Part shown: positions 17,894-53,121 of the stretch, piece after piece
How positions within the stretch are numbered: the first letter of the stretch is position 1
Layout: each line of letters opens with the position of its first letter
Assembly: GCA_944372425.1 (NCBI GenBank)
Contig: CALVZC010000006.1
Coordinates: 202-64,201, forward strand
DNA: 64,000 nt
Direction of reading: 5' to 3'
Source of the DNA: an uncultured Bacilli bacterium
GTDB lineage: Bacteria; Bacillota_I; Bacilli_A; RF39; UBA660
The notes under the pieces: generated by a model
What the model saw: the letters and a program-made list of their open reading frames with translations, nothing else
Databases searched by the model: none
What the model was told of the DNA's origin: nothing
Position numbers and translations under genes: made by a program

Positions 17894-18706
17894 ATGAATA
17901 ATTTATTAATTTTAAATAATTTATCAATTGGTTATAAAGATTTAATTATTTATAAAGATTTGTCTTTTAATATTACTGAAAATACAATTACTGCAATATT
18001 ATGTCCAAATAATGGTGGTAAAAGTACATTAATTAGAACATTAAGCGGTATTATTTATGGATTAGATGGAAATATAGTGCTAAATAACGTAAAATTAACT
18101 AGAAGAAATTTTAAAAAGTATATTCGTAATATAGGTGTTGTTTTAGAGGATTTAGATTATCAGTTTATTACAGATAATGTTAAAGAAGAAATAACATTTC
18201 CACTTGTTAATTTAGGATATAAAAAAAATATTATTAATAAGCATATTAAAGATGTTTCTAATATCTGTGAGATTGATAACATATTAAATAAAAAAATAAA
18301 AGTTCTTTCTAATTATGAAAAAATAAAGGTTTTAATTGCTACTAGTATTATTCATTTCCCTAAAATATTACTTTTAGATGATCCTTTTAGATTTATAAAT
18401 ATTAAAGAACAAAAAAAAATCTTGAATATTTTAAATAATATAAAAAATAATTATAATATTTCTATAGTTTTTACTACATCGCAAATTTCTTCAATAATCG
18501 ATTTGGAAAACATTATTGTTTTAGGAAATGGAAAAATTGTTATGCAAGGAAATTATAATGATATTATAAAAAGAGATAATGAGTTAAGTAAATTAGGAAT
18601 TGAAATACCTATTATGATAGATTTATCTTTAAAACTACAATTTTATAATTTATTAGACGATATATATTATAATGTTGAGGGGATGGTTGATAAATTATGG
18701 AAATAA
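17894..18706 (+). CDS. EcfA1-like ABC ATPase-fold protein with degenerate catalytic motifs
   Basis: Conserved locus position and an EcfA-type C-terminus (LSKLGIEIP...MVDKLW). Walker A is CPNNGGKST, signature LSNYE, Walker B LLLDD, and the H-loop is lost. Confidence 0.7.
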   Translation: MNNLLILNNLSIGYKDLIIYKDLSFNITENTITAILCPNNGGKSTLIRTLSGIIYGLDGNIVLNNVKLTRRNFKKYIRNIGVVLEDLDYQFITDNVKEEITFPLVNLGYKKNIINKHIKDVSNICEIDNILNKKIKVLSNYEKIKVLIATSIIHFPKILLLDDPFRFINIKEQKKILNILNNIKNNYNISIVFTTSQISSIIDLENIIVLGNGKIVMQGNYNDIIKRDNELSKLGIEIPIMIDLSLKLQFYNLLDDIYYNVEGMVDKLWK

Positions 18707-19386
18707 TTTTGCGAAATAATTATAATTGTAAAAAGAAAATTAATGTTGAAGAAGGCATTATTATATCTTTACAAGCAAGTAACCTTAATGCTATTGTTAA
18801 TAACTTATTAAATGATTATAAATTTATTAATATTAATAATAATCAAATGTATTTTGTAGGTGAAAATGTATATGAGGAGATAAATTTATATAATAAAATT
18901 TATAATTTAAGTTTAATTAATGATGTTCTTAATATTTTAGGATTAGATGATAGTTTTTTTAATAAAAAAATTGAAAATTTATCTTACACTGAAAAAATAT
19001 ATTTAAATATAATTAGAAATTTATCTTTGGATAATAAAAAAGTTTTATTTTATGATGTTTACAATTATTTGGATTATGCTAATCAGAAAAAAATTAAAAA
19101 TTTACTTTTATATTTAAAAGATAAAAAATATATTATTCTTATAACTAGCAATGATGTAAATGTTTTGTATAAACTTGCGGATTATTCAGTATTATGGAAT
19201 AAAAATAATTTTGAATATTCTAAAACAGATGATTTATATTCTGATGTTGAAAAACTATTAAAGTTTAAGTTAGAAGTACCAATTTTATCTAAAATTACAT
19301 ATAAAGCTCTAAAAGATAAAAATATTAAATTATTTTATAGTAAAGATGTAAGAGATATAATAAAGGATATTTATAAACATGTATAG
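18697..19386 (+). CDS. EcfA2-like protein lacking Walker A, all ATPase motifs degenerate
   Basis: 229 aa. The C-terminal KFKLEVPILSKI segment resembles the EcfA2 tail. Signature-like LSYTEK and Walker-B-like VLFYDV, with no P-loop. Confidence 0.55.
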   Translation: MEIILRNNYNCKKKINVEEGIIISLQASNLNAIVNNLLNDYKFININNNQMYFVGENVYEEINLYNKIYNLSLINDVLNILGLDDSFFNKKIENLSYTEKIYLNIIRNLSLDNKKVLFYDVYNYLDYANQKKIKNLLLYLKDKKYIILITSNDVNVLYKLADYSVLWNKNNFEYSKTDDLYSDVEKLLKFKLEVPILSKITYKALKDKNIKLFYSKDVRDIIKDIYKHV

Positions 19387-19966
19387 TGTGAATTGGAAGA
19401 TTAGAGCTTTAATAACAACTATTCTTATTATAATAACTTCTTTAATAAATAATTATTATTTGTTCTGGTTATTATTATTTTATTTATTATTAATTTCAAT
19501 TGTCGATAGAAATATTAAGTCTTTACTTTTAAATTTTTTAATAGTTTTAATTCTTTTGTTTTGTTTTTATACTTCTAAAATAAGATTGCTACTTAAAATA
19601 ATTTGTATTATAAATATTTTAGTTTTATTTTTCTATTCTTTTACTAAAAAAGAAAGAAAATTCTTAAAATTTAAAATATTATATAAATATAGAAAAAGTT
19701 CTCAAAAAAAATTATTTTATAAATATAACATCGATAAAATAAAAGTTTTCAATAAAGAAAAAGCATTAAAAACATATGATGAAAATGTTAATATAGATAA
19801 TAAAGTAAAAAAAGATATGGATTATTTATATCTTTGCAGTAGAATTAGATTTTATGGTTATAGTAATAGACTAGGTAATTATATGGAAAGAAAAATAGGA
19901 ATATATGATTTTGTTTTTTTAGTAGTGTTTATATTTTTTGTTATTCTTTGTGTTTGTTTATGGTAG
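19379..19966 (+). CDS. Short membrane protein in the EcfT position (possible EcfT relic)
   Basis: 195 aa, hydrophobic N-half and C-end, in the ecfT locus position. SRIRFYGY weakly resembles the EcfT coupling-helix xRG motif. Confidence 0.4.
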   Translation: MYSVNWKIRALITTILIIITSLINNYYLFWLLLFYLLLISIVDRNIKSLLLNFLIVLILLFCFYTSKIRLLLKIICIINILVLFFYSFTKKERKFLKFKILYKYRKSSQKKLFYKYNIDKIKVFNKEKALKTYDENVNIDNKVKKDMDYLYLCSRIRFYGYSNRLGNYMERKIGIYDFVFLVVFIFFVILCVCLW

Positions 19967-27189: not shown

Positions 27190-27705
27190 ATGAGTAACAG
27201 AGATAAAAAAAATATTATGATTGTAGCTCTTTTAATAGCAGTTGTTTTTATGTCAGTAGGATATGCATTATTATCAACAAAATTAGACGTTCAGGGGACT
27301 TCAACAATAGTTGATCCAGTTTGGGATGTAGGAATTATATCAATAAGTGAAAATTCTACAGAAGGCTATGCTAATAGTTTAAATTCAACAGTTATTAATA
27401 AATTTTCAGCAAAATTTAATGTTGAATTGCAAATGCCAAATGATAAAGTCACATATACAATTAATGTCAAAAATGAGGGGACAATTGATGCTAAACTTAA
27501 TTCTATATCGATAATGCCAGAAGATTACAATGAGGGATTTATAAAATATGAAATAGAAGGAATAAAAGCAGGGGAAGTATTATCAGTAGGAGAAAGTAAA
27601 ACTTTCACTTTATCTGTTATGTATAACAGTGATGCAACTGGTCAGCCACAAGAAGAAGACTTAACTAAAGAAATTAGTTTAATACTTGATTATATCCAAA
27701 AATAA
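27190..27705 (+). CDS. Small secreted protein with a TasA/SipW-type signal region (cassette 1 cargo)
   Basis: 171 aa. N-terminal K-rich n-region, h-region, then GYALLSTKLDVQGTSTI. TasA-like PNDKVTYTINVKNEGTIDA strand motif. Confidence 0.75.
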   Translation: MSNRDKKNIMIVALLIAVVFMSVGYALLSTKLDVQGTSTIVDPVWDVGIISISENSTEGYANSLNSTVINKFSAKFNVELQMPNDKVTYTINVKNEGTIDAKLNSISIMPEDYNEGFIKYEIEGIKAGEVLSVGESKTFTLSVMYNSDATGQPQEEDLTKEISLILDYIQK

Positions 27706-27731
27706 GTAATTTATTATAAGTTACTTTTTTT
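27704..27731 (+). terminator. Weak hairpin plus T-run after the cassette 1 cargo gene (possible attenuator)
   Basis: aagtaa/ttactt 6-bp stem, 11-nt loop, T7. Confidence 0.3.
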
Positions 27732-27771
27732 ACTTTATTATTGTTTGTAATAAAAAAATAATGGAGGATTT

Positions 27772-28917
27772 ATGAAAAATAAAAGAATTATACTTTTATA
27801 TTTAATGTTATTTGTATATATTACAATAAACAATTTAATGATGCAGTCTAAATTTGTTTATTATAATTCAGTAATAATTTCTCCATTTTTATTGTTTGTA
27901 ATAACCATAATTGCATATTTCTTATTGCCAACAGCTCAAAAAAGAATTAAATATAAATATGAAAAAAATCAAAACGTTATTATAATAATTTTTTTATATC
28001 TAATTATTTATTTTATTTCTGGATTAATTTTCGGCTATTCATATTCTATATATAGTAAAGACTTATTGACTTTAATAAAAAATATATATAGTGTATCAAT
28101 TATTATAGTTTTAAGTGAATATATAAGAAATAAATTAGTAGTCAATAGTAGTGATAATTATATAAATAATGTACTAATTTCAATAGCTTTAATTTTGATT
28201 ACTTTTAATTTTTCTTATTTTTTTAGAAATATTTATCCTTTTTCAGTAGGATTTAAGTATATAGCATCACAAATTATTCCTAATTTGGTAATAAGCTTTA
28301 CTTTAACTTATCTTTCAAGAAAATGTGGATTGATTTCAACTTTAATTTGTAATTTATCTCTTGGTTTAATTGCAATAATTTTACCAATTTTACCTAATAT
28401 ATCTTGGATAATATTATCAATATTAAAAATAGTCTTAGCAATGTTTCTTTATTTTAACATTAATTATTTTGAATTAATGTATGATAGAAAATATCATCGA
28501 TATTTACTTAATAAGAATACGAAATCAACAACGATTTTGTTTATTATAGTAATAATATTAATTATGTTTATTTTAAAATTTTTTAAATATTATCCAATTT
28601 CTATCTTATCAGATAGTATGAAAAATACTTTTTCTCGTGGTGATATAGCAATTATCGAAAAATTAGATAGAGATTATATTGAAGAAATTCAAGTTAATGA
28701 TATAATTTATTATAAGAAAAATAATAAATTAATAATACATCGTATTGTAAATATTGAAATAATTAACAACAGAATAGTAATAACAACTAAAGGTGATAAT
28801 AATGATGATATTGATCCATGGAAAGTATATGAAGAAGAAATTGTCGGAATAGTTAAAGGGAAAATACCTTTTCTTGGATATCCAGCAGTATGGCTTAACG
28901 AAGCATTTAACGATTAG
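27772..28917 (+). CDS. Polytopic membrane domain fused to an ER/archaeal-type (SipW-like) signal peptidase I
   Basis: 381 aa. About 8 TM segments over the first ~270 aa, then the S26 motifs SDSM (Ser), IHRIV (His rather than Lys), GDNN..D. Confidence 0.8.
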   Translation: MKNKRIILLYLMLFVYITINNLMMQSKFVYYNSVIISPFLLFVITIIAYFLLPTAQKRIKYKYEKNQNVIIIIFLYLIIYFISGLIFGYSYSIYSKDLLTLIKNIYSVSIIIVLSEYIRNKLVVNSSDNYINNVLISIALILITFNFSYFFRNIYPFSVGFKYIASQIIPNLVISFTLTYLSRKCGLISTLICNLSLGLIAIILPILPNISWIILSILKIVLAMFLYFNINYFELMYDRKYHRYLLNKNTKSTTILFIIVIILIMFILKFFKYYPISILSDSMKNTFSRGDIAIIEKLDRDYIEEIQVNDIIYYKKNNKLIIHRIVNIEIINNRIVITTKGDNNDDIDPWKVYEEEIVGIVKGKIPFLGYPAVWLNEAFND

Positions 28918-28925
28918 GAGGAACT

Positions 28926-29999
28926 ATGAAAAATAAAGAGAAAGAAGTTTTAAAAAAGACAGTAATTAGAAGCTCTCTTTTATTAATATCCATTTTTTCT
29001 TTAATATTTGGAATATTAATAACTATTGAAGGAATAACAAACAACAAAGAAGAAAAAGAGGAATTAATTAGTTATGAATCAAACGGTAATATTGATTATC
29101 AGATAAGTTTAAAAGAAAATGATTTTTATAATATTGAAAATACAAATTACAAAAATATAATAGGAAAATATATTGATAATATAAATTTAAGATTTAACTA
29201 TGAATTTTCAGCATCAAATTTATTAAATTCTGAAGTTAAATATTCTTTAAAACTATATTTAGTAAGTGAATATACTGCAAATAATAAAAAAGAAGAAATA
29301 TGGAAACAAGAATATGAACTAATTCCTGAAACAGAAGAATTAAATATTAATAGTGGTATAGTTACGATATCTAAAGATATTACTTTTAATTATGACGAAT
29401 ATAATGAAATAGCTAAGAAGGTAAGATCAGAATCTGGTGTATTAACTGATTCTTACATAAAAGTAGAGTTTATTGTTAATAACAAGTTAGAATTGATAGA
29501 AAAAGATATGAATTTTAACGATAATCATACATTAGTAGCAAAAATATCACTACTAGATAATATTGTAACGTTTGAAAAGATAAATGAATACAATAATAAA
29601 GAAACATTGTATAATACTATTTCTGAAAATGCAAATTATCCATTATTAATAACAGGAATATGTTTATTACTAGTATCATTATTATTATTAATTCAGTCAT
29701 TAAAAATGTTTATAAACACTAGTGCAGAATCAAAATACATAATAGAACAAAATAAAATTTTAAAAAGATATGGTGATGTTATTGCAGAGACATCGACAAA
29801 GCCAAATTTAGAGGATACTAATATAATTGAGATAACTAATTTTATTGATATGATTAATATAGAAGATGAGCTTAGAATACCAATTTTATTTTATGAAAGC
29901 ATAAAAGGAAAAGAATCATGGTTTATTATTATTAACAATAATAAGGCATATAGATATATATTAAAAATAAAATTAAAACGAAAAAGTAATGTAAGTTAG
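28926..29999 (+). CDS. Bitopic membrane protein, cassette 1 third gene (possibly DUF5305-like)
   Basis: 357 aa. TM1 near residue 20, an ~200-aa external domain, TM2 near residue 245, and a ~95-aa cytoplasmic tail. Paralog of 50138..51244. Confidence 0.7.
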   Translation: MKNKEKEVLKKTVIRSSLLLISIFSLIFGILITIEGITNNKEEKEELISYESNGNIDYQISLKENDFYNIENTNYKNIIGKYIDNINLRFNYEFSASNLLNSEVKYSLKLYLVSEYTANNKKEEIWKQEYELIPETEELNINSGIVTISKDITFNYDEYNEIAKKVRSESGVLTDSYIKVEFIVNNKLELIEKDMNFNDNHTLVAKISLLDNIVTFEKINEYNNKETLYNTISENANYPLLITGICLLLVSLLLLIQSLKMFINTSAESKYIIEQNKILKRYGDVIAETSTKPNLEDTNIIEITNFIDMINIEDELRIPILFYESIKGKESWFIIINNNKAYRYILKIKLKRKSNVS

Positions 30000-30244
30000 A
30001 AATATAAAAAGGAAAAAAATAGCGTAAAAAAACAAAAGACAAAACAAATGCTCAAATATAAATATTTTAATTTTGTTTCATATTTTAGTAATAATGAATT
30101 ATTTATTGATAGTTTTTCATTTTATATGGTATTTTCATATTTTTCTTTTTATATATGGAAACCTTAATTTTGATCTTTGTTGTTTTATAATTAAACTAAG
30201 TACGTAAGTAAAAATATATTTAATAATAGGATATTTTGTTTATG

Positions 30245-48331: not shown

Positions 48332-48922
48332 ATGGAAAAAGATCGAAAAACAAAAGTTTTGGCTGTAATAGCAATAATCATAGCAGTAGTTAGTTTAACT
48401 ATTGGTTTTGCAGCATTTAGTACCACATTGTCAATTGATGGTACAGGAGATGTTAAGTCATCTTCATGGAAGGTAAGGTTTGAAAATTTACAACCTGTTC
48501 AAAGGGTAGGTACGGCAGTAGAAACAACTGCACCAACAATTAATACTAATGATACAACTATTAGTAATTTTGATGTAAGTTTCACAACTCCAGGAGACTC
48601 AGTTAGTTATACATTTGATATAGCTAATAAAGGAACATTTGATGCTGAGATTACTAGTATAAATATTCCAACACCTACATGTCAAGGAACAGGTACAAAC
48701 GCTGAACAAGATGCTACTAATGTATGTAATAATTTAGAGTATAAGCTAACTTATACTGATGGTGGAGCACCTTTAGCACAAACTGATACTTTAAACAAAG
48801 GTGAAAAAAAGAATGTTACACTTACTTTAACGTATAAAGATACTATTGGTGAAGCAGAACTTCCACAAGATAATGTTGACATTAATACTTTAGGAATTAG
48901 CATTGTTTATTCACAAAGATAG
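48332..48922 (+). CDS. Small secreted protein with a TasA/SipW-type signal region (cassette 2 cargo)
   Basis: 196 aa. IGFAAFSTTLSIDGTGDV after the h-region, and PGDSVSYTFDIANKGTFDA. Paralog of 27190..27705, with a Cys-flanked insert. Confidence 0.75.
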   Translation: MEKDRKTKVLAVIAIIIAVVSLTIGFAAFSTTLSIDGTGDVKSSSWKVRFENLQPVQRVGTAVETTAPTINTNDTTISNFDVSFTTPGDSVSYTFDIANKGTFDAEITSINIPTPTCQGTGTNAEQDATNVCNNLEYKLTYTDGGAPLAQTDTLNKGEKKNVTLTLTYKDTIGEAELPQDNVDINTLGISIVYSQR

Positions 48923-48996: not shown

Positions 48997-50130
48997 ATGA
49001 AACAAAGTGAAAAAAATATATTAATTATTGAATTTATTTTTATGGCAATACTTATTTTAAATGCTTTCTTATTTAGAATTGAAAATACTATTCTGATAAG
49101 TATTTTTCTGTTGATTTTTTTAATAATATCTATTGAAGTTTTGGGTTATGAAAAAGATAGACATCGCTATAAAAAAGATGGTATTTTACTTGGGATTATT
49201 TTTGCATCAGGTTTTCAAATATTTATATATTTATTAGGGCTTATAACAGGATTCTTAGAAAATGGATATAGCTTAAAACTAATTAATATTTTTAGAAATA
49301 CTTTACCAAATTTAATACTAATAATAATAACAGAATTATTTCGTTACCAACTTATAACAAAAAGTCAGAAAAGAAAATCATTAAAACTATTAACTACAAT
49401 ATTATTTATTGTGTTAGATATTGTTATTATGATTCCTTTGTATAACTTATATGATTCTAGAAATTTTATTGAGTTTTTATCTATTATTGTTATTCCAAGT
49501 ATCTCAAAAAATATATTATTTACTTATTTTATATTAAAATTTGGATATTTAACTAATATATGCTATAGAGTAATAATGGAACTAACAATTTATATAGTTC
49601 CTATTTTACCGAATATTAATATTTATTTAGATTCAGTTTTTAAGTTTACTTTTCCAATTATTATATTAATGTGTTTACAAAAAATATTAAACGAAAAAAA
49701 GGATATAGAAGTAAGAAAACCTAAAATTTTAAAAATAGTTGATGTCTTTGTTACTTTATTTTTGTTAATTGTTGTATTTTTAACTAGTGGTATTTTTAGT
49801 CATTATGCACTAGTAATAGGATCAGATTCAATGAATCCAAACATAAATAAAGGAGATATAGTTATTGTTAAAAAAATTAAATCTGAGCAAATTGAAAATA
49901 TTGAAGTTGGAGATATTTTAGTATTCAACATGAGAAACAAAGTAGTAGTACACAGAGTACAGAAAATAAATGATAATAATAACAGGATATCGTTTATAAC
50001 AAAAGGTGATAACAATATTGATGTAGATAATTGGGTTGTTAACGAAAATGATGTTATAGGTATAGTAACTGCAAAAATACCAATAGTTGGTTATCCTACT
50101 GTATGGTTAAATGAAATGATAGGAGGATGA
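48997..50130 (+). CDS. Polytopic membrane domain fused to an ER/archaeal-type (SipW-like) signal peptidase I
   Basis: 377 aa. About 8 TM segments, then GSDSMNP, VVHRVQ, TKGDNNIDVDNW. Paralog of 27772..28917. Confidence 0.8.
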   Translation: MKQSEKNILIIEFIFMAILILNAFLFRIENTILISIFLLIFLIISIEVLGYEKDRHRYKKDGILLGIIFASGFQIFIYLLGLITGFLENGYSLKLINIFRNTLPNLILIIITELFRYQLITKSQKRKSLKLLTTILFIVLDIVIMIPLYNLYDSRNFIEFLSIIVIPSISKNILFTYFILKFGYLTNICYRVIMELTIYIVPILPNINIYLDSVFKFTFPIIILMCLQKILNEKKDIEVRKPKILKIVDVFVTLFLLIVVFLTSGIFSHYALVIGSDSMNPNINKGDIVIVKKIKSEQIENIEVGDILVFNMRNKVVVHRVQKINDNNNRISFITKGDNNIDVDNWVVNENDVIGIVTAKIPIVGYPTVWLNEMIGG

Positions 50131-50137
50131 AAATAGA

Positions 50138-51244
50138 ATGAGTGATGAGAAGAACATAAAAAATAGTAATCTTTACCAATCTTTTACAAAGAGAAAAAAA
50201 AGAAGTCGCGCAATAATGTTAATTCTTTTATTAATATCTTTGTTCTTAATTATATTATCTTCTGTATTTTTAAAATCATCAATGAATTTTAAAGATAACT
50301 TTATCAATTATAATGAAAAAGGAGATATTAATTATAAAGTATATTTAAAAGATAATGATTATTATGATGAACCATTTTTAGATAAGGGCATGCAATACAT
50401 TGCAAGTTTAATTAATACTATAAATGTTGACTTTAAATATGAAATTAATTCTTCTGATGAATTATCTTATAAATATAAATATAAAATAACTGGTGATTTA
50501 GTAATAACTGAAAAAAATAATCCTAGCAAGGTTTTGTACAAGAATACGGAAATTTTATTAGAAGAAACTGCAAAAGAGATAACTGATAGTTCATTTGTTA
50601 TTAACGAAGATTTAGATATTAATTATGATAAATATAATGAATATGTTGTTGCATTTCAAAAGGATTATTCTTTGAGTGTCGACAGTAATTTAGTGTTGAC
50701 TTTAGCAGTTGAAACTGTTGGAGAGAACAATATATTAGTTAATAATTTTAATAAAAATAGTAATTTAATTGTTTCTGTTCCTTTATCAGAACATACAATA
50801 AGTATTACAACTGATTTAAATTCACTTAATGGATCAGGAATAATTAGAAGCACTGAAATTGTTAAAATAGATAATGTAATGTTATTCGTTTTAAGTATAT
50901 CTTTAGGATTAATTGGTTTAATAATTCTTATATCTATTGTTTATCTTTATCTATCAAAAAATAATAATAACAATCTTTATGAAAAAGAAATAAAGAATAT
51001 TCTTAAAAACTATGATCGTTTAATTGTTAGTAGTAAAGTATTAGATATAGATGAAAATAAATTTCAAAATAAAGTTCGTGTTACAAGTATTGAAGAACTT
51101 ATTGATGTATATGAAACTACAAAGCAACCGATTATTTATTATGAAGTTATTCCAAATGAAAAAAGTTATTTTATAATTATAAATGATGATACATTATATA
51201 AATTAACAATATCAAAAGAATGGTTAGAAGAAAATAAAAAATAA
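50138..51244 (+). CDS. Bitopic membrane protein, cassette 2 third gene (possibly DUF5305-like)
   Basis: 368 aa. Same architecture and shared motifs as 28926..29999. Confidence 0.7.
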   Translation: MSDEKNIKNSNLYQSFTKRKKRSRAIMLILLLISLFLIILSSVFLKSSMNFKDNFINYNEKGDINYKVYLKDNDYYDEPFLDKGMQYIASLINTINVDFKYEINSSDELSYKYKYKITGDLVITEKNNPSKVLYKNTEILLEETAKEITDSSFVINEDLDINYDKYNEYVVAFQKDYSLSVDSNLVLTLAVETVGENNILVNNFNKNSNLIVSVPLSEHTISITTDLNSLNGSGIIRSTEIVKIDNVMLFVLSISLGLIGLIILISIVYLYLSKNNNNNLYEKEIKNILKNYDRLIVSSKVLDIDENKFQNKVRVTSIEELIDVYETTKQPIIYYEVIPNEKSYFIIINDDTLYKLTISKEWLEENKK

Positions 51245-51292: not shown

Positions 51293-51426
51293 CAATAGTA
51301 AATCCTATCATACAATAAAATGACATGTGTATATAAAATACTCATGCTTTTAAATTTTCTAATATAGCTTGCTATAAATATTAGAATATAGTAAAATTTA
51401 ACTATAAAATAGAAAGAAGGTAAAAA

Positions 51427-51483
51427 ATGGGATTTAGGAATACAAACAAATATTCGAGTGGGGGGGGGGGGACACTTTACTAA
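51427..51483 (+). other. 18-codon upstream ORF containing the G12 tract
   Basis: AGAAGG RBS plus ATG. MGFRNTNKYSSGGGGTLY, then a stop. Confidence 0.35.
51460..51471 (+). repeat. Homopolymeric G12 tract
   Basis: 12 consecutive G by hand count, in an otherwise very AT-rich intergenic region. Confidence 0.95.
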
Positions 51484-51603
51484 ATTAGAAGCCTTTACCT
51501 TAAAAGATAAAATAGGTTTAATCATAATATTAAAAGAAATAATGACAATATTCATATATGAAATAAGAAATAAATTGATATATGAAAGGCGTGAAGTAAT
51601 ATT

Positions 51604-52986
51604 ATGATAAAACCAAAAATAATGTTTTTAATAACAATAACAATTTTAGGATTATCAATAGGATATGGAGCTTTTAATGCTGAATTATCGATAAGTGGAG
51701 AAGCAACAGTTAATGGTCAGAGATATAAAGAAGAAATATTAAATGGAACAGAACCGAAGTTAGAAGAACCATTAATAGCAGTAACAATAGAAGATGATGG
51801 AACAGTAAAGAAAGCAGATTTAACAAGTAAGTGGTATAGTTATGAAGAAAAAAGATGGGCAAATGCAGTAATATTAAAAAATGAAAATAAAGAATATGTT
51901 AGTGGAGAAATAATACCAGAAGAAGAAATAGAGAGTTATTTTGTATGGATACCGAAGTATAGTTATAAGTTATGGGATTTAGGAAATTATACAGATTGGA
52001 CAGAAATAGATGAAAATAAAGTACATGCAATAGAAATAAGATTTGGGACAACAAATACTACTGATAGTGTTTCTGGAGAATGTACAACACCAGGAATATC
52101 AGGAGAGAGTGGAAACTGTGAAGTAGGAGATTACATGACCCATCCAGCTTTTTTAGCATTTAATACAACAGGGATGTGGGTAGGAAAGTTTGAAACAGGA
52201 TATAGTGGAGCAACAAGTGTAAGTGAAGCAGAAAAGAACACAACAGAAGTAGATAAAGTAATAGTAAAACCGAATGTATATAGTTGGAGAAGTATACAAT
52301 TATCCAATGCCTTTACAGTAAGTTATAATTATAAAAGAGAGTTAGAATCCCATATGATGAAGAATACTGAATGGGGAGCAGTAGCCTATTTATCACATTC
52401 TATATATGGAATAAATTATGAAATAAGAATAAATAATAATTCTAATTTTTTAACAGGATATGCAGCAACAACAGAAAACGGAAGTGGAAGTACAACAGAT
52501 GTAGCAATGTGGAACACACCTACAGGTTATTTAGCGAGTACAACAGGAAATATAACAGGGATATATGATATGTCAGGAGGATCAGAAGAACATGTAATGG
52601 GAGTAATGAAAGATGCAAATGGGAATTTAATGTCAGGTTATGATTCTACTTCTAATTCAGGATTTAATGGAACATTATATGATGGAAGTAGTATAACAAA
52701 TGGAATAGATTTTCCAGATAGTAAATATTATGATGTTTATAATTACAATAAAAGCCATACTAATTATTCACGAAGAATATTAGGGGATGCAACAGGAGAG
52801 ATGGGACCATTTGATTATGTATCATCATGGTATAATGATAATGCATCTTTCGTTTATCCTTTATCCCCTTGGTTCGACCGTGGGGGCCACTATTTCGATC
52901 GTTCTGGAGCTGGTGCGTTCTTTTTCGACTACTACTACGGGCATGCTTACAGAACCATTTCTTTCCGTTTGGTTTTGTGCATATAG
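51604..52986 (+). CDS. Secreted protein with a SipW-type signal region and a C-terminal FGE/C-type-lectin-like domain
   Basis: 460 aa. IGYGAFNAELSISGEATV after the h-region. GIYDMSGG, RGG and SFRLV motifs, typical of the FGE-sulfatase / CLec fold. Confidence 0.75.
   Translation: MIKPKIMFLITITILGLSIGYGAFNAELSISGEATVNGQRYKEEILNGTEPKLEEPLIAVTIEDDGTVKKADLTSKWYSYEEKRWANAVILKNENKEYVSGEIIPEEEIESYFVWIPKYSYKLWDLGNYTDWTEIDENKVHAIEIRFGTTNTTDSVSGECTTPGISGESGNCEVGDYMTHPAFLAFNTTGMWVGKFETGYSGATSVSEAEKNTTEVDKVIVKPNVYSWRSIQLSNAFTVSYNYKRELESHMMKNTEWGAVAYLSHSIYGINYEIRINNNSNFLTGYAATTENGSGSTTDVAMWNTPTGYLASTTGNITGIYDMSGGSEEHVMGVMKDANGNLMSGYDSTSNSGFNGTLYDGSSITNGIDFPDSKYYDVYNYNKSHTNYSRRILGDATGEMGPFDYVSSWYNDNASFVYPLSPWFDRGGHYFDRSGAGAFFFDYYYGHAYRTISFRLVLCI
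52848..52980 (+). other. Adenine-depleted, GC-rich 3' coding tract (candidate DGR variable region)
   Basis: Over 52861-52980 I count 16 A of 120 nt and about 59 G+C, against roughly 45-50% A just upstream. Encodes HYFD...FFFDYYYGHAY. Confidence 0.45.
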
Positions 52987-53006
52987 TTTTTCCACTTGTG
53001 GAAAAA
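52987..53006 (+). other. Hairpin immediately after the stop codon
   Basis: tttttcca(c)/(g)tggaaaaa, an 8-9 bp stem with a 2-4 nt loop. Confidence 0.6.
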
Positions 53007-53086
53007 CTTAACCCTGATCTTTGTGGTTTAATGAATAAACAAAGTATATAGATAGACAGATTTAATAGTAGAAGAATATTTTAATT

Positions 53087-53121
53087 ATGCCGATTGCGTG
53101 CGTTTGCAATCGGCATTTTTA
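53087..53121. terminator. GC-rich terminator between convergent genes
   Basis: atgccgattgc/gcaatcggcat 11-bp stem plus T-run. Confidence 0.75.

Follow-up and report, generated by a model that had tools for sequence, protein, structure and literature searches.

A putative retroelement-diversified head protein beside a SipW/TafD-type pilus cassette in an uncultured gut Bacilli bacterium

Introduction

Several proteins of the C-type lectin (CLec) fold are known as variable proteins of diversity-generating retroelements (DGRs), among them TaqVP of Thermus aquaticus (Protein Data Bank (PDB) entry 5vf4), Mtd of Bordetella phage BPP-1 (1yu0) and TvpA of Treponema denticola (2y3c). In Bacteroides, DGR-diversified adhesins have been placed at type V pilus tips (BfrT, BthT and BunT; bioRxiv 10.1101/2024.11.15.621889). 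Here we analyze a gene from an uncultured gut bacterium of the RF39 lineage of Bacilli whose predicted 460-residue product, called the head protein below, appears to join a CLec head of the DGR variable-protein type to the N-terminus of a secreted fibre subunit. The gene lies next to a pilus cassette encoding a SipW/TafD-type signal peptidase, within a 64-kb stretch of DNA (hereafter the window) that spans positions 202 to 64,201 of contig CALVZC010000006.1 (assembly GCA_944372425.1). Coordinates are those of the window unless a related locus is named.

Fibres that assemble by strand donation offer another point of comparison. Haloarchaeal Tat-fimbriae are built in this way: deletion of the signal peptidase gene tafD stops processing of the major subunit, and TafG, a DUF5305 protein encoded beside TafD, has been proposed as its helper (PMC11821415, PMC12337348). 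TafC has been modelled at the tip of these fimbriae, with its N-terminal donor strand inside the next subunit and its lectin-like domain facing outward (PMC11821415, PMC12337348), and TapA has a comparable strand-complementing role for TasA (PMC10151520). In the published model for both, the N-terminal strand of a tip or minor protein mimics the donor strand of the major subunit (PMC10151520, PMC9674648).

Our literature search found no paper joining DGRs with TasA, SipW or RF39. Binding modules have also been grafted onto modular type IV pilins, such as PilB and PilC of Streptococcus sanguinis. Among the matches listed from the prepilin literature, DGRs are not mentioned; one survey lists a "G-type pilin" domain as a rare entry bearing a variable region (VR) (PMC11661182).

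Results

The 3' end of the head gene is homologous to template repeats (TRs) of DGRs in related genomes, and its differences from them fall mostly on adenines. In an alignment with the TR of the related loci L085 and L019, a template from other genomes, mismatches of the window VR affect 12 of the 28 adenines and 5 of the 90 remaining bases (p 1e-5); the VR of the closest homologue, in locus L083, gives 13 of 28 and 5 of 90 (p 2e-6). In BLAST against all loci, the window VR is matched best by TRs (85.6% identity) and reaches 80% or less with other VRs. The same end of the gene is the hypervariable one in the protein alignment: among 43 close homologues, entropy per 20-residue block is 0.1-0.9 bits to residue 280 and 0.4-1.2 bits to residue 400, and it reaches 1.4-1.7 bits in the last 60 residues, hypervariable codons beginning at about residue 404 (52813). 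The variable positions (404-406, 411, 413, 415, 418-421, 425, 429, 431-432, 442-445, 447 and 449-452) hold N, S, Y, H, D, G, A, C, F, I, L, V, T, P or R, almost exclusively the residues that AAY codons yield by adenine mutagenesis, and W409, W423, G437, F439, S453 and R455 between them are invariant in the same homologues. We take the head gene to be, or to have been until recently, a target that a DGR of the L019 type reaches from a remote site. Our confidence is high that the VR is DGR-derived, judging by its sequence, and lower that it is being diversified at present. The cluster member having the window's VR is P0392.

A scan of 80 related loci (about 1 Mb) for reverse transcriptase (RT) motifs placed DGR RTs directly 3' of two members of the head family, in L019 and L053; JGI metagenomes scanned for the TR and the VR core gave no matches. 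Locus L019, which comes from a circular 1.31-Mb chromosome labelled "uncultured Bacilli", has a canonical DGR cassette: in order, a head that is fused to a pilin and carries its VR, then a hairpin, a terminator-containing spacer, the TR, a MutS_I-domain gene, bAvd and an RVT_1 RT. Its TR is 87% identical to its VR, the differences affecting 16 of 33 adenines and 3 of 109 other bases. Other metagenomes also yielded this locus (L081 and L085-L087), and in them VR and TR differ at 15 of 33 adenines and at none of the 109 other bases. As in the TaqVP, Mtd and TvpA systems, related genomes carry TR, bAvd and RT beside family members.

Two further observations concern these DGR loci. Between TR and bAvd, the DGR cassettes of L019 (11905..12288), L081 (524..910), L085 (3287..3673) and L053 (2641..3105) encode a small protein with MutS domain I (PF01624, E 1.4e-8); it looks like an accessory gene. 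In three metagenomes (L085, L086 and L087) the DGR-linked target has an identical VR, although a comparison of the L085 and L086 gene bodies shows 78 differences in about 1,800 nt. These identical VRs may reflect strong selection on the VR, or spread of the VR and its flank by recombination.

Hairpins and other end elements following a VR, like the initiation-of-mutagenic-homing site, are assigned a role in target recognition on the BPP-1 paradigm. The window hairpin begins inside the stop codon (Table 1), and the DGR-linked target of L019 has the same hairpin fold. Downstream conservation is of the same kind: over the non-coding 134 nt past the head stop codon, identity to the spacer between VR and TR in L019, L081 and L003 is 92-93%, and identity to the L019 target, taken per 100-nt block, is 45-92% in the gene body versus 93% in the 3' flank. 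Where the DGR loci have a TR, 3' of the spacer, the window has a convergent beta-lactamase-family gene.

The head itself was modelled with AlphaFold2 (AF2). With 120 diverse family representatives as input the model reached a pLDDT of 95.5 and a pTM of 0.90; 39 close homologues as input gave a pLDDT of 39.6. The signal h-region appears as a helix over residues 4-25, a low-confidence linker follows at residues 26-42 (pLDDT 57-64 over residues 21-40), and a compact domain extends from about residue 43 to the end. In a Foldseek search of the PDB the top matches were TaqVP (5vf4, E 1.2e-8) and then Mtd (1yu0, E 5.4e-4), followed lower down by formylglycine-generating enzyme (FGE; 5nxl, E 1e-2), EgtB, PvdO and TvpA, and in the viral structure library BFVD phage tail-fibre and SUMF-like proteins matched at E down to 2e-9. 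Sequence comparison was less informative: a family profile reached 5vf4 among PDB sequences at E 0.014, phmmer of the head protein against PDB sequences returned noise only, and Pfam and NCBIfam gave nothing on it at E<=1, PF03781 included.

A preliminary description of this gene, based on its letters and translation, had proposed an FGE/CLec fold for the C-terminal part from the strings GIYDMSGG, RGG and SFRLV. These are present at residues 319-326, 426-428 and 453-457, as is its N-terminal string IGYGAFNAELSISGEATV at residues 19-36, and structure prediction and fold search agree with the fold it proposed. Its term lectin is apt for the fold but not for a function: the sugar/calcium motifs EPN/QPD and WND are absent from the 460 residues by direct reading, so the fold does not imply glycan binding, and the head belongs to the DGR variable-protein type. 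A calcium-dependent C-type lectin domain (CTLD) is ruled out on the same grounds.

Like those of TaqVP, Mtd and TvpA, the VR of the head lies at the extreme C-terminus, ending ...SFRLVL, with AAY-type variation on an invariant scaffold and a hairpin after the VR. Unlike them, the head has an extra N-terminal subdomain of about 140 residues and inserts (TM-score 0.3-0.45, identity 10-16%); it also carries a Sec signal with a pilin-like strand at the N-terminus, lacks a nearby TR or RT, and belongs to a hugely expanded family. Our reading of the model, held with high confidence for the fold, is a non-enzymatic, DGR-type version of the FGE/CLec fold, and we would file the head as a DGR-type variable protein whose cognate TR and RT are seen in related genomes only.

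The N-terminus of the head protein resembles those of two small cargo proteins encoded in the window. The predicted signal peptidase I site has G-Y-G before the cut and A-F-N after it; its small residues at -3 and -1 suit a type I signal peptidase, which would probably cleave between G22 and A23. Both small cargos (27190.. and 48332..) have the same context, G-[FY]-[AG] followed by x-[FL], and the three N-termini align as an h-region, G-[FY]-[AG] and then [AL]-[FL]-[SN]-x-x-L-[SD]-[IV]-x-G. Searching the whole 64 kb, translated in six frames, with the regular expression G-[FYW]-[AGS]-x-[FLMIY]-[STNDQ]-x-x-[LIVF]-x-[IVLF]-x-[GN] gave only three matches, in small cargo 1, small cargo 2 and the head open reading frame (ORF), upholding the earlier claim of a motif common to these three. 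The motif is kept in 43 of 43 close homologues having this type of N-terminus.

By direct reading, the strand after the predicted cut is identical to that of cargo 2, AFSTTLSIDGTGDV, at 7 of 14 positions and to that of cargo 1 at 2 of 14. After the predicted cleavage the protein retains a flexible extension of 20 residues ahead of the head. By analogy with TafC and TapA (PMC11821415, PMC10151520), the first part of this extension, AFNAELSISGEATV, may function as a donor strand. The preliminary description also likened the N-terminus to that of TasA; this applies to A-F-N at P1'-P3', Phe at P2' of TasA being noted in PMC10269814, but the likeness ends there.

The adjacent cassette comprises small cargo 2, a peptidase and a DUF5305 protein (Table 1), and a second cassette in the window lies at 27190..29999. 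As for TafC and for TapA/TasA, the locus has a dedicated signal peptidase I (TafD/SipW), here accompanied by a TafG-like DUF5305 protein. The peptidase scores 59 bits on the SipW equivalog model, versus a cut-off of 190, and cargo 2 matches Peptidase_M73/camelysin below the cut-off (E 0.0047). Genes for peptidase, DUF5305 protein and head follow one another in this order not only in the window but also in L001, which is syntenic, and in L005, which is distant. In L005 the peptidase is only 30% identical to that of the window, the head gene overlaps the DUF5305 gene and its product consists of a signal, a cargo-like domain and the head. In hhalign, the N-terminal region of about 180 residues (signal, strand, stalk) of one member group aligned with the small cargos over 95 columns (probability 96.4%, E 1.1e-9). 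This homology is seen by hhalign; BLASTP of the cargos against the head family gave one weak match only. We have moderate confidence that the head protein would undergo SipW-type processing, and lower confidence that it would be displayed at a fibre tip.

In both cassettes the peptidase (27772..28917 and 48997..50130) has a long polytopic N-terminal membrane domain of about 250 residues ahead of S26, unlike SipW of B. subtilis. Just downstream of the DUF5305 gene of the first cassette, at 30159..30240, lies a degenerate copy of the post-VR spacer, about 75% identical (TGATCTTTGT.GTTT.AT...TTATGCCAATTGC), with no head gene beside it; this suggests that the first cassette may once have had a head gene, since lost.

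The window protein differs from TafC and TapA in having the strand only, without an Ig-like pilin domain, a Sec rather than a Tat signal, and a CLec rather than a laminin-G head. The small cargo of the window cassette is not detectably TasA-like by sequence. BfrT, BthT and BunT share with the window protein a CLec head, DGR-type residues, a gene at the end of a pilus operon, a predicted tip position and a gut bacterium as source. However, the type V pili of Bacteroides are lipoprotein-based, assembled by protease-mediated strand exchange and belong to diderms, whereas the window has a SipW/TafD-type peptidase and a DUF5305 protein in monoderm Bacilli, type IV pilins also bear this head, and the window has no adjacent DGR.

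The head belongs to a large family, with about 7,900 matches in a 90%-clustered database, 3,610 representatives of 50%-identity clusters (E<=1e-3) and many paralogues per genome of about 1.3 Mb. A type IV pilin N-terminus (PF07963) is present on 26 of 80 relatives and a Peptidase_M73 (TasA/camelysin) domain on one, so the head seems habitually to be mounted on filament subunits. Among 148 cluster representatives, sorted by rough motif, the head nearly always stands behind a filament-subunit type of N-terminus: about 35 are of type IV pilin type, about 31 TasA/camelysin-like (xSYAxW/F), 14 TFALY/SFASFE and 11 of the window type. Many members resemble modular pilins, being full type IV pilins (GFTLIELL...) with the head grafted C-terminally. 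The window protein does not: it has no class III signal, a degenerate relic occurs in its leader only, and its module is DGR-type. A type IV pilin identity was rejected, the head ORF having no class III signal (G-1, F+1, E+5) with alpha-1 helix. Other members of the family include the giants P0121 (3713 aa), P0190 (4516 aa) and P0243 (4340 aa), with up to six matched head-domain stretches, and proteins with added Laminin_G_3, Flg_new, Big_2 or ALK/LTK glycine-rich domains.

The gene appears to travel with its flanks. A unit of poly-G leader, head gene, VR, hairpin, spacer and terminator occurs at three unrelated chromosomal positions among close relatives (window 51369..53116, L083 3001..4386 and L084 172..1554): in the window beside the pilus cassette, and otherwise between genes for a 532-aa protein and a sulfatase-family protein, and upstream of hrcA-grpE-dnaK. 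This distribution implies that the gene unit moves or is copied as a module.

The leader contains a G12 tract, the sole run of eight or more G or C in the 64-kb window, within a short upstream ORF that leads into a relic, EAFTLKDKIGLIIIL, of a degenerate type IV prepilin leader and alpha-1 helix. The relic resembles the leader of L019, MNNINTNKYSSWGGGHFTKVKGFTLIELL (compare NTNKYSSGGGGHFTKLEAFTLKDKIGLIIIL in the window with NTNKYSSWGGGHFTKVKGFTLIELLAVIIIL in L019). At a tract length of 11 or 14 G this upstream ORF would end at a TGA overlapping the head ATG. The leader is otherwise conserved in close homologues, which have G10 (L083) and G8 (L084). Across the related loci there are 19 runs of eight or more G or C in about 1 Mb, all of them G on the strand of the head gene, and 14 of these (G9-G13) lie 200-700 nt upstream of the head domain (L008, L010, L011, L012, L015, L016, L019, L022, L024, L058, L061, L062, L071 and L075). 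Some tracts fall in the 5' coding region, giving WGGG or MGGG N-termini, and in at least one locus, L011 (9588..9620), the tract is inside a promoter spacer, TTGACA-T-G12-TATCATGATAAAAT. This arrangement looks like slipped-strand phase variation through G tracts, with the G12 of the window as a candidate switch.

Table 1. Features of the head gene and the adjacent cassette
Feature	Position	Strand	Description
Small cargo 2, presumed fibre subunit	48332..48922	+	196 aa; shares signal motif
Polytopic membrane protein with C-terminal archaeal-type signal peptidase I domain (SipW/TafD-like)	48997..50130	+	TIGR02228 E 1.1e-26, above cut-off; Peptidase_S24/S26
DUF5305 membrane protein, TafG counterpart	50138..51244	+	PF17231 E 2.5e-15
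5' leader	51427..51607	+	Shine-Dalgarno and ATG (51427), G12 tract (51460..51471), degenerate type IV prepilin leader relic
Head protein gene	51604..52986	+	ATG 51604 to stop 52986, 460 aa; signal peptide, short N-terminal extension, CLec/FGE-fold head, C-terminal variable region
Signal peptide MIKPKIMFLITITILGLSIGYG	51604..51669	+	residues 1-22; helix 4-25 in AF2 model
Candidate donor strand AFNAELSISGEATV	51670..51711	+	predicted mature N-terminus; low-confidence unstructured linker ahead of head
Head domain	51730..52983	+	residues 43-460; CLec/FGE fold, DGR variable-protein type
DGR-type variable region (VR)	52866..52983	+	118 nt homologous to TR of DGRs in related genomes
Hairpin, 10-bp stem and 4-nt loop	52985..53008	+	begins inside stop codon; dG -8.2 kcal/mol, z -4.8
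Spacer and intrinsic terminator (53087..53116)	53009..53120	+	like VR-to-TR spacer of DGR loci

Discussion

We lean towards viewing the window gene as encoding a DGR-diversifiable tip adhesin of a TasA/Taf-like fibre, with a secreted CLec/FGE-fold head that binds a ligand. The head protein would be exported through Sec by its N-terminal signal and cleaved after G-Y-G22 by the peptidase of the adjacent cassette, aided by the DUF5305 protein, as has been proposed for TafD and TafG. The new N-terminus, mimicking that of the small cargo, would then insert as a donor strand into the cargo 2 subunit. Since a protein with the strand alone can donate a strand but cannot accept one, the head, itself lacking a pilin domain, would act as a cap at one fibre end. 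The binding surface would consist of about 20 positions among the last 60 or so residues; these positions would have been rewritten by adenine-directed mutagenic retrohoming from a TR elsewhere in the genome, the head gene having kept the elements needed in cis: a TR-homologous VR, the hairpin and the spacer. More speculatively, the poly-G tract in the leader may add on/off switching.

Several observations weigh against this interpretation, some touching the retroelement and others the fibre. The 64-kb window contains no TR (blastn, word size 7), no RT (motif scan) and no Avd; five differences between the VR and the related TR lie outside adenines, and the initial 24 nt of the 142-nt TR have no match in the window VR. 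Furthermore, different samples share the same VR haplotypes within 90% clusters, as do three samples at the DGR-linked locus; VR turnover is therefore not rapid, and diversification would be episodic at best. The absence of TR and RT from the window and these shared haplotypes could indicate a fossil target, a historical signature with no active DGR in which diversity arises by recombination among paralogues and ordinary selection; mosaic gene bodies, the presence of the gene unit at different loci and the clearly decayed VRs and flanks of L001 and L084 are all consistent with this, and we regard it as possible, if on the unlikely side. The decayed copies, however, have no adenine bias (p about 0.07 to 1), whereas the window and L083 VRs are strongly biased, and the hairpin and spacer are conserved at the level given above although they are non-coding. 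In addition, the study that yielded L083 and L084 (ONAT22-1 sample names), whose head proteins are P0001 and P0391, also yielded RT-bearing contigs with this spacer. Alternatively, the head protein may be a receptor or adhesin outside any fibre, its N-terminus staying as an anchor or cut by a housekeeping signal peptidase and its head, diversified by a DGR or not, standing alone at the cell surface or in soluble form. The paralogues P0031, P0048 and P0076, which consist of a plain membrane anchor, a linker and the head, fit this picture, as do P0001 and P0391, the closest homologues, which are encoded at unrelated loci away from any cassette. In the window itself, the DUF5305 gene and the head gene are 360 bp apart, with a weak terminator-like hairpin and a candidate promoter in the interval, and the head gene has its own candidate promoter and terminator; the AF2 model, in which the head starts at about residue 43 right after the linker, has no Ig-like strand-accepting pilin domain. 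Profiles of the small cargo and stalk against PDB sequences found no TasA, Taf or Abp match, and curated NCBIfam models of SipW-cognate signals and TasA did not match the N-terminal 50-59 residues at E<=10. We nevertheless consider a role outside fibres rather unlikely: the post-h-region motif of the 43 close homologues is otherwise confined to cassette cargos, the gene order recurs in L005 with overlapping genes, and the stalks of fused relatives are homologous to the cargos. The link between head and cassette made in the preliminary description is therefore upheld by the adjacency in the window, L001 and L005 and by this homology, but it does not extend to P0001 and P0391.

Two other explanations start from the fold. 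As an exported enzyme of the FGE family, the head protein would modify a substrate by formylglycine generation or as a sulfoxide synthase. It shares with FGE/PF03781 proteins the overall fold, a W..A.AY-like helix and the motifs G-x-YDMSG, RGG and FR[LV], and 17 of 80 relatives match PF03781 weakly (best E 4.9e-4). Yet the head protein lacks a Pfam match, its only cysteines by direct reading are C160, C172 and C459, which leaves no C-terminal catalytic Cys pair, and the region equivalent to the FGE active site is hypervariable; with non-enzymatic DGR variable proteins as the best fold matches, an enzymatic role seems very improbable. We give still less credence to a phage receptor-binding protein left by a prophage. 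Tail-fibre proteins are indeed the best viral fold matches, but the neighbouring genes encode TrmB, TyrRS, S4, EzrA, a beta-lactamase-like protein and the pilus cassette, with no phage genes, and the head protein has a signal peptide and none of the N-terminal domains of tail fibres.

If the tip-adhesin interpretation holds, the window gene would be a minimal form, consisting of head and donor strand only. DGR-diversified pilus tips have only recently been shown, in the type V pili of Bacteroides, and the window locus points to a like strategy in monoderm bacteria of this lineage. The fibre system in question is a barely studied bacterial counterpart of archaeal tafi, bundling pili and TasA. 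A family of thousands of proteins without a Pfam entry thereby gains a fold and a likely role, and uncultured gut Bacilli with reduced genomes gain a concrete candidate for adhesion variation. The locus is also a tractable test case for the targeting of DGRs in trans and for the capping of a fibre tip by a strand-only protein.

A broader scheme is conceivable but doubtful: a single family of interchangeable CLec heads may serve both type IV pili and SipW/TafD-TafG donor-strand fibres, which are unrelated to each other as filament systems, and be varied by a single trans-acting DGR together with poly-G switching in gut Bacilli with genomes of about 1.3 Mb. In that case the DGR would recognise the conserved module of VR, hairpin and spacer, while poly-G tracts at the 5' ends would switch the genes on and off, and the window gene would be the first known case of a DGR target linked to a fibre of TasA/Taf type.

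Elsewhere in the window, the segment 18001..20000 is very AT-rich (GC 0.18) and contains a gene for an ABC-transporter ATPase and two ORFs with no Pfam match (18697..19386 and 19379..19966).

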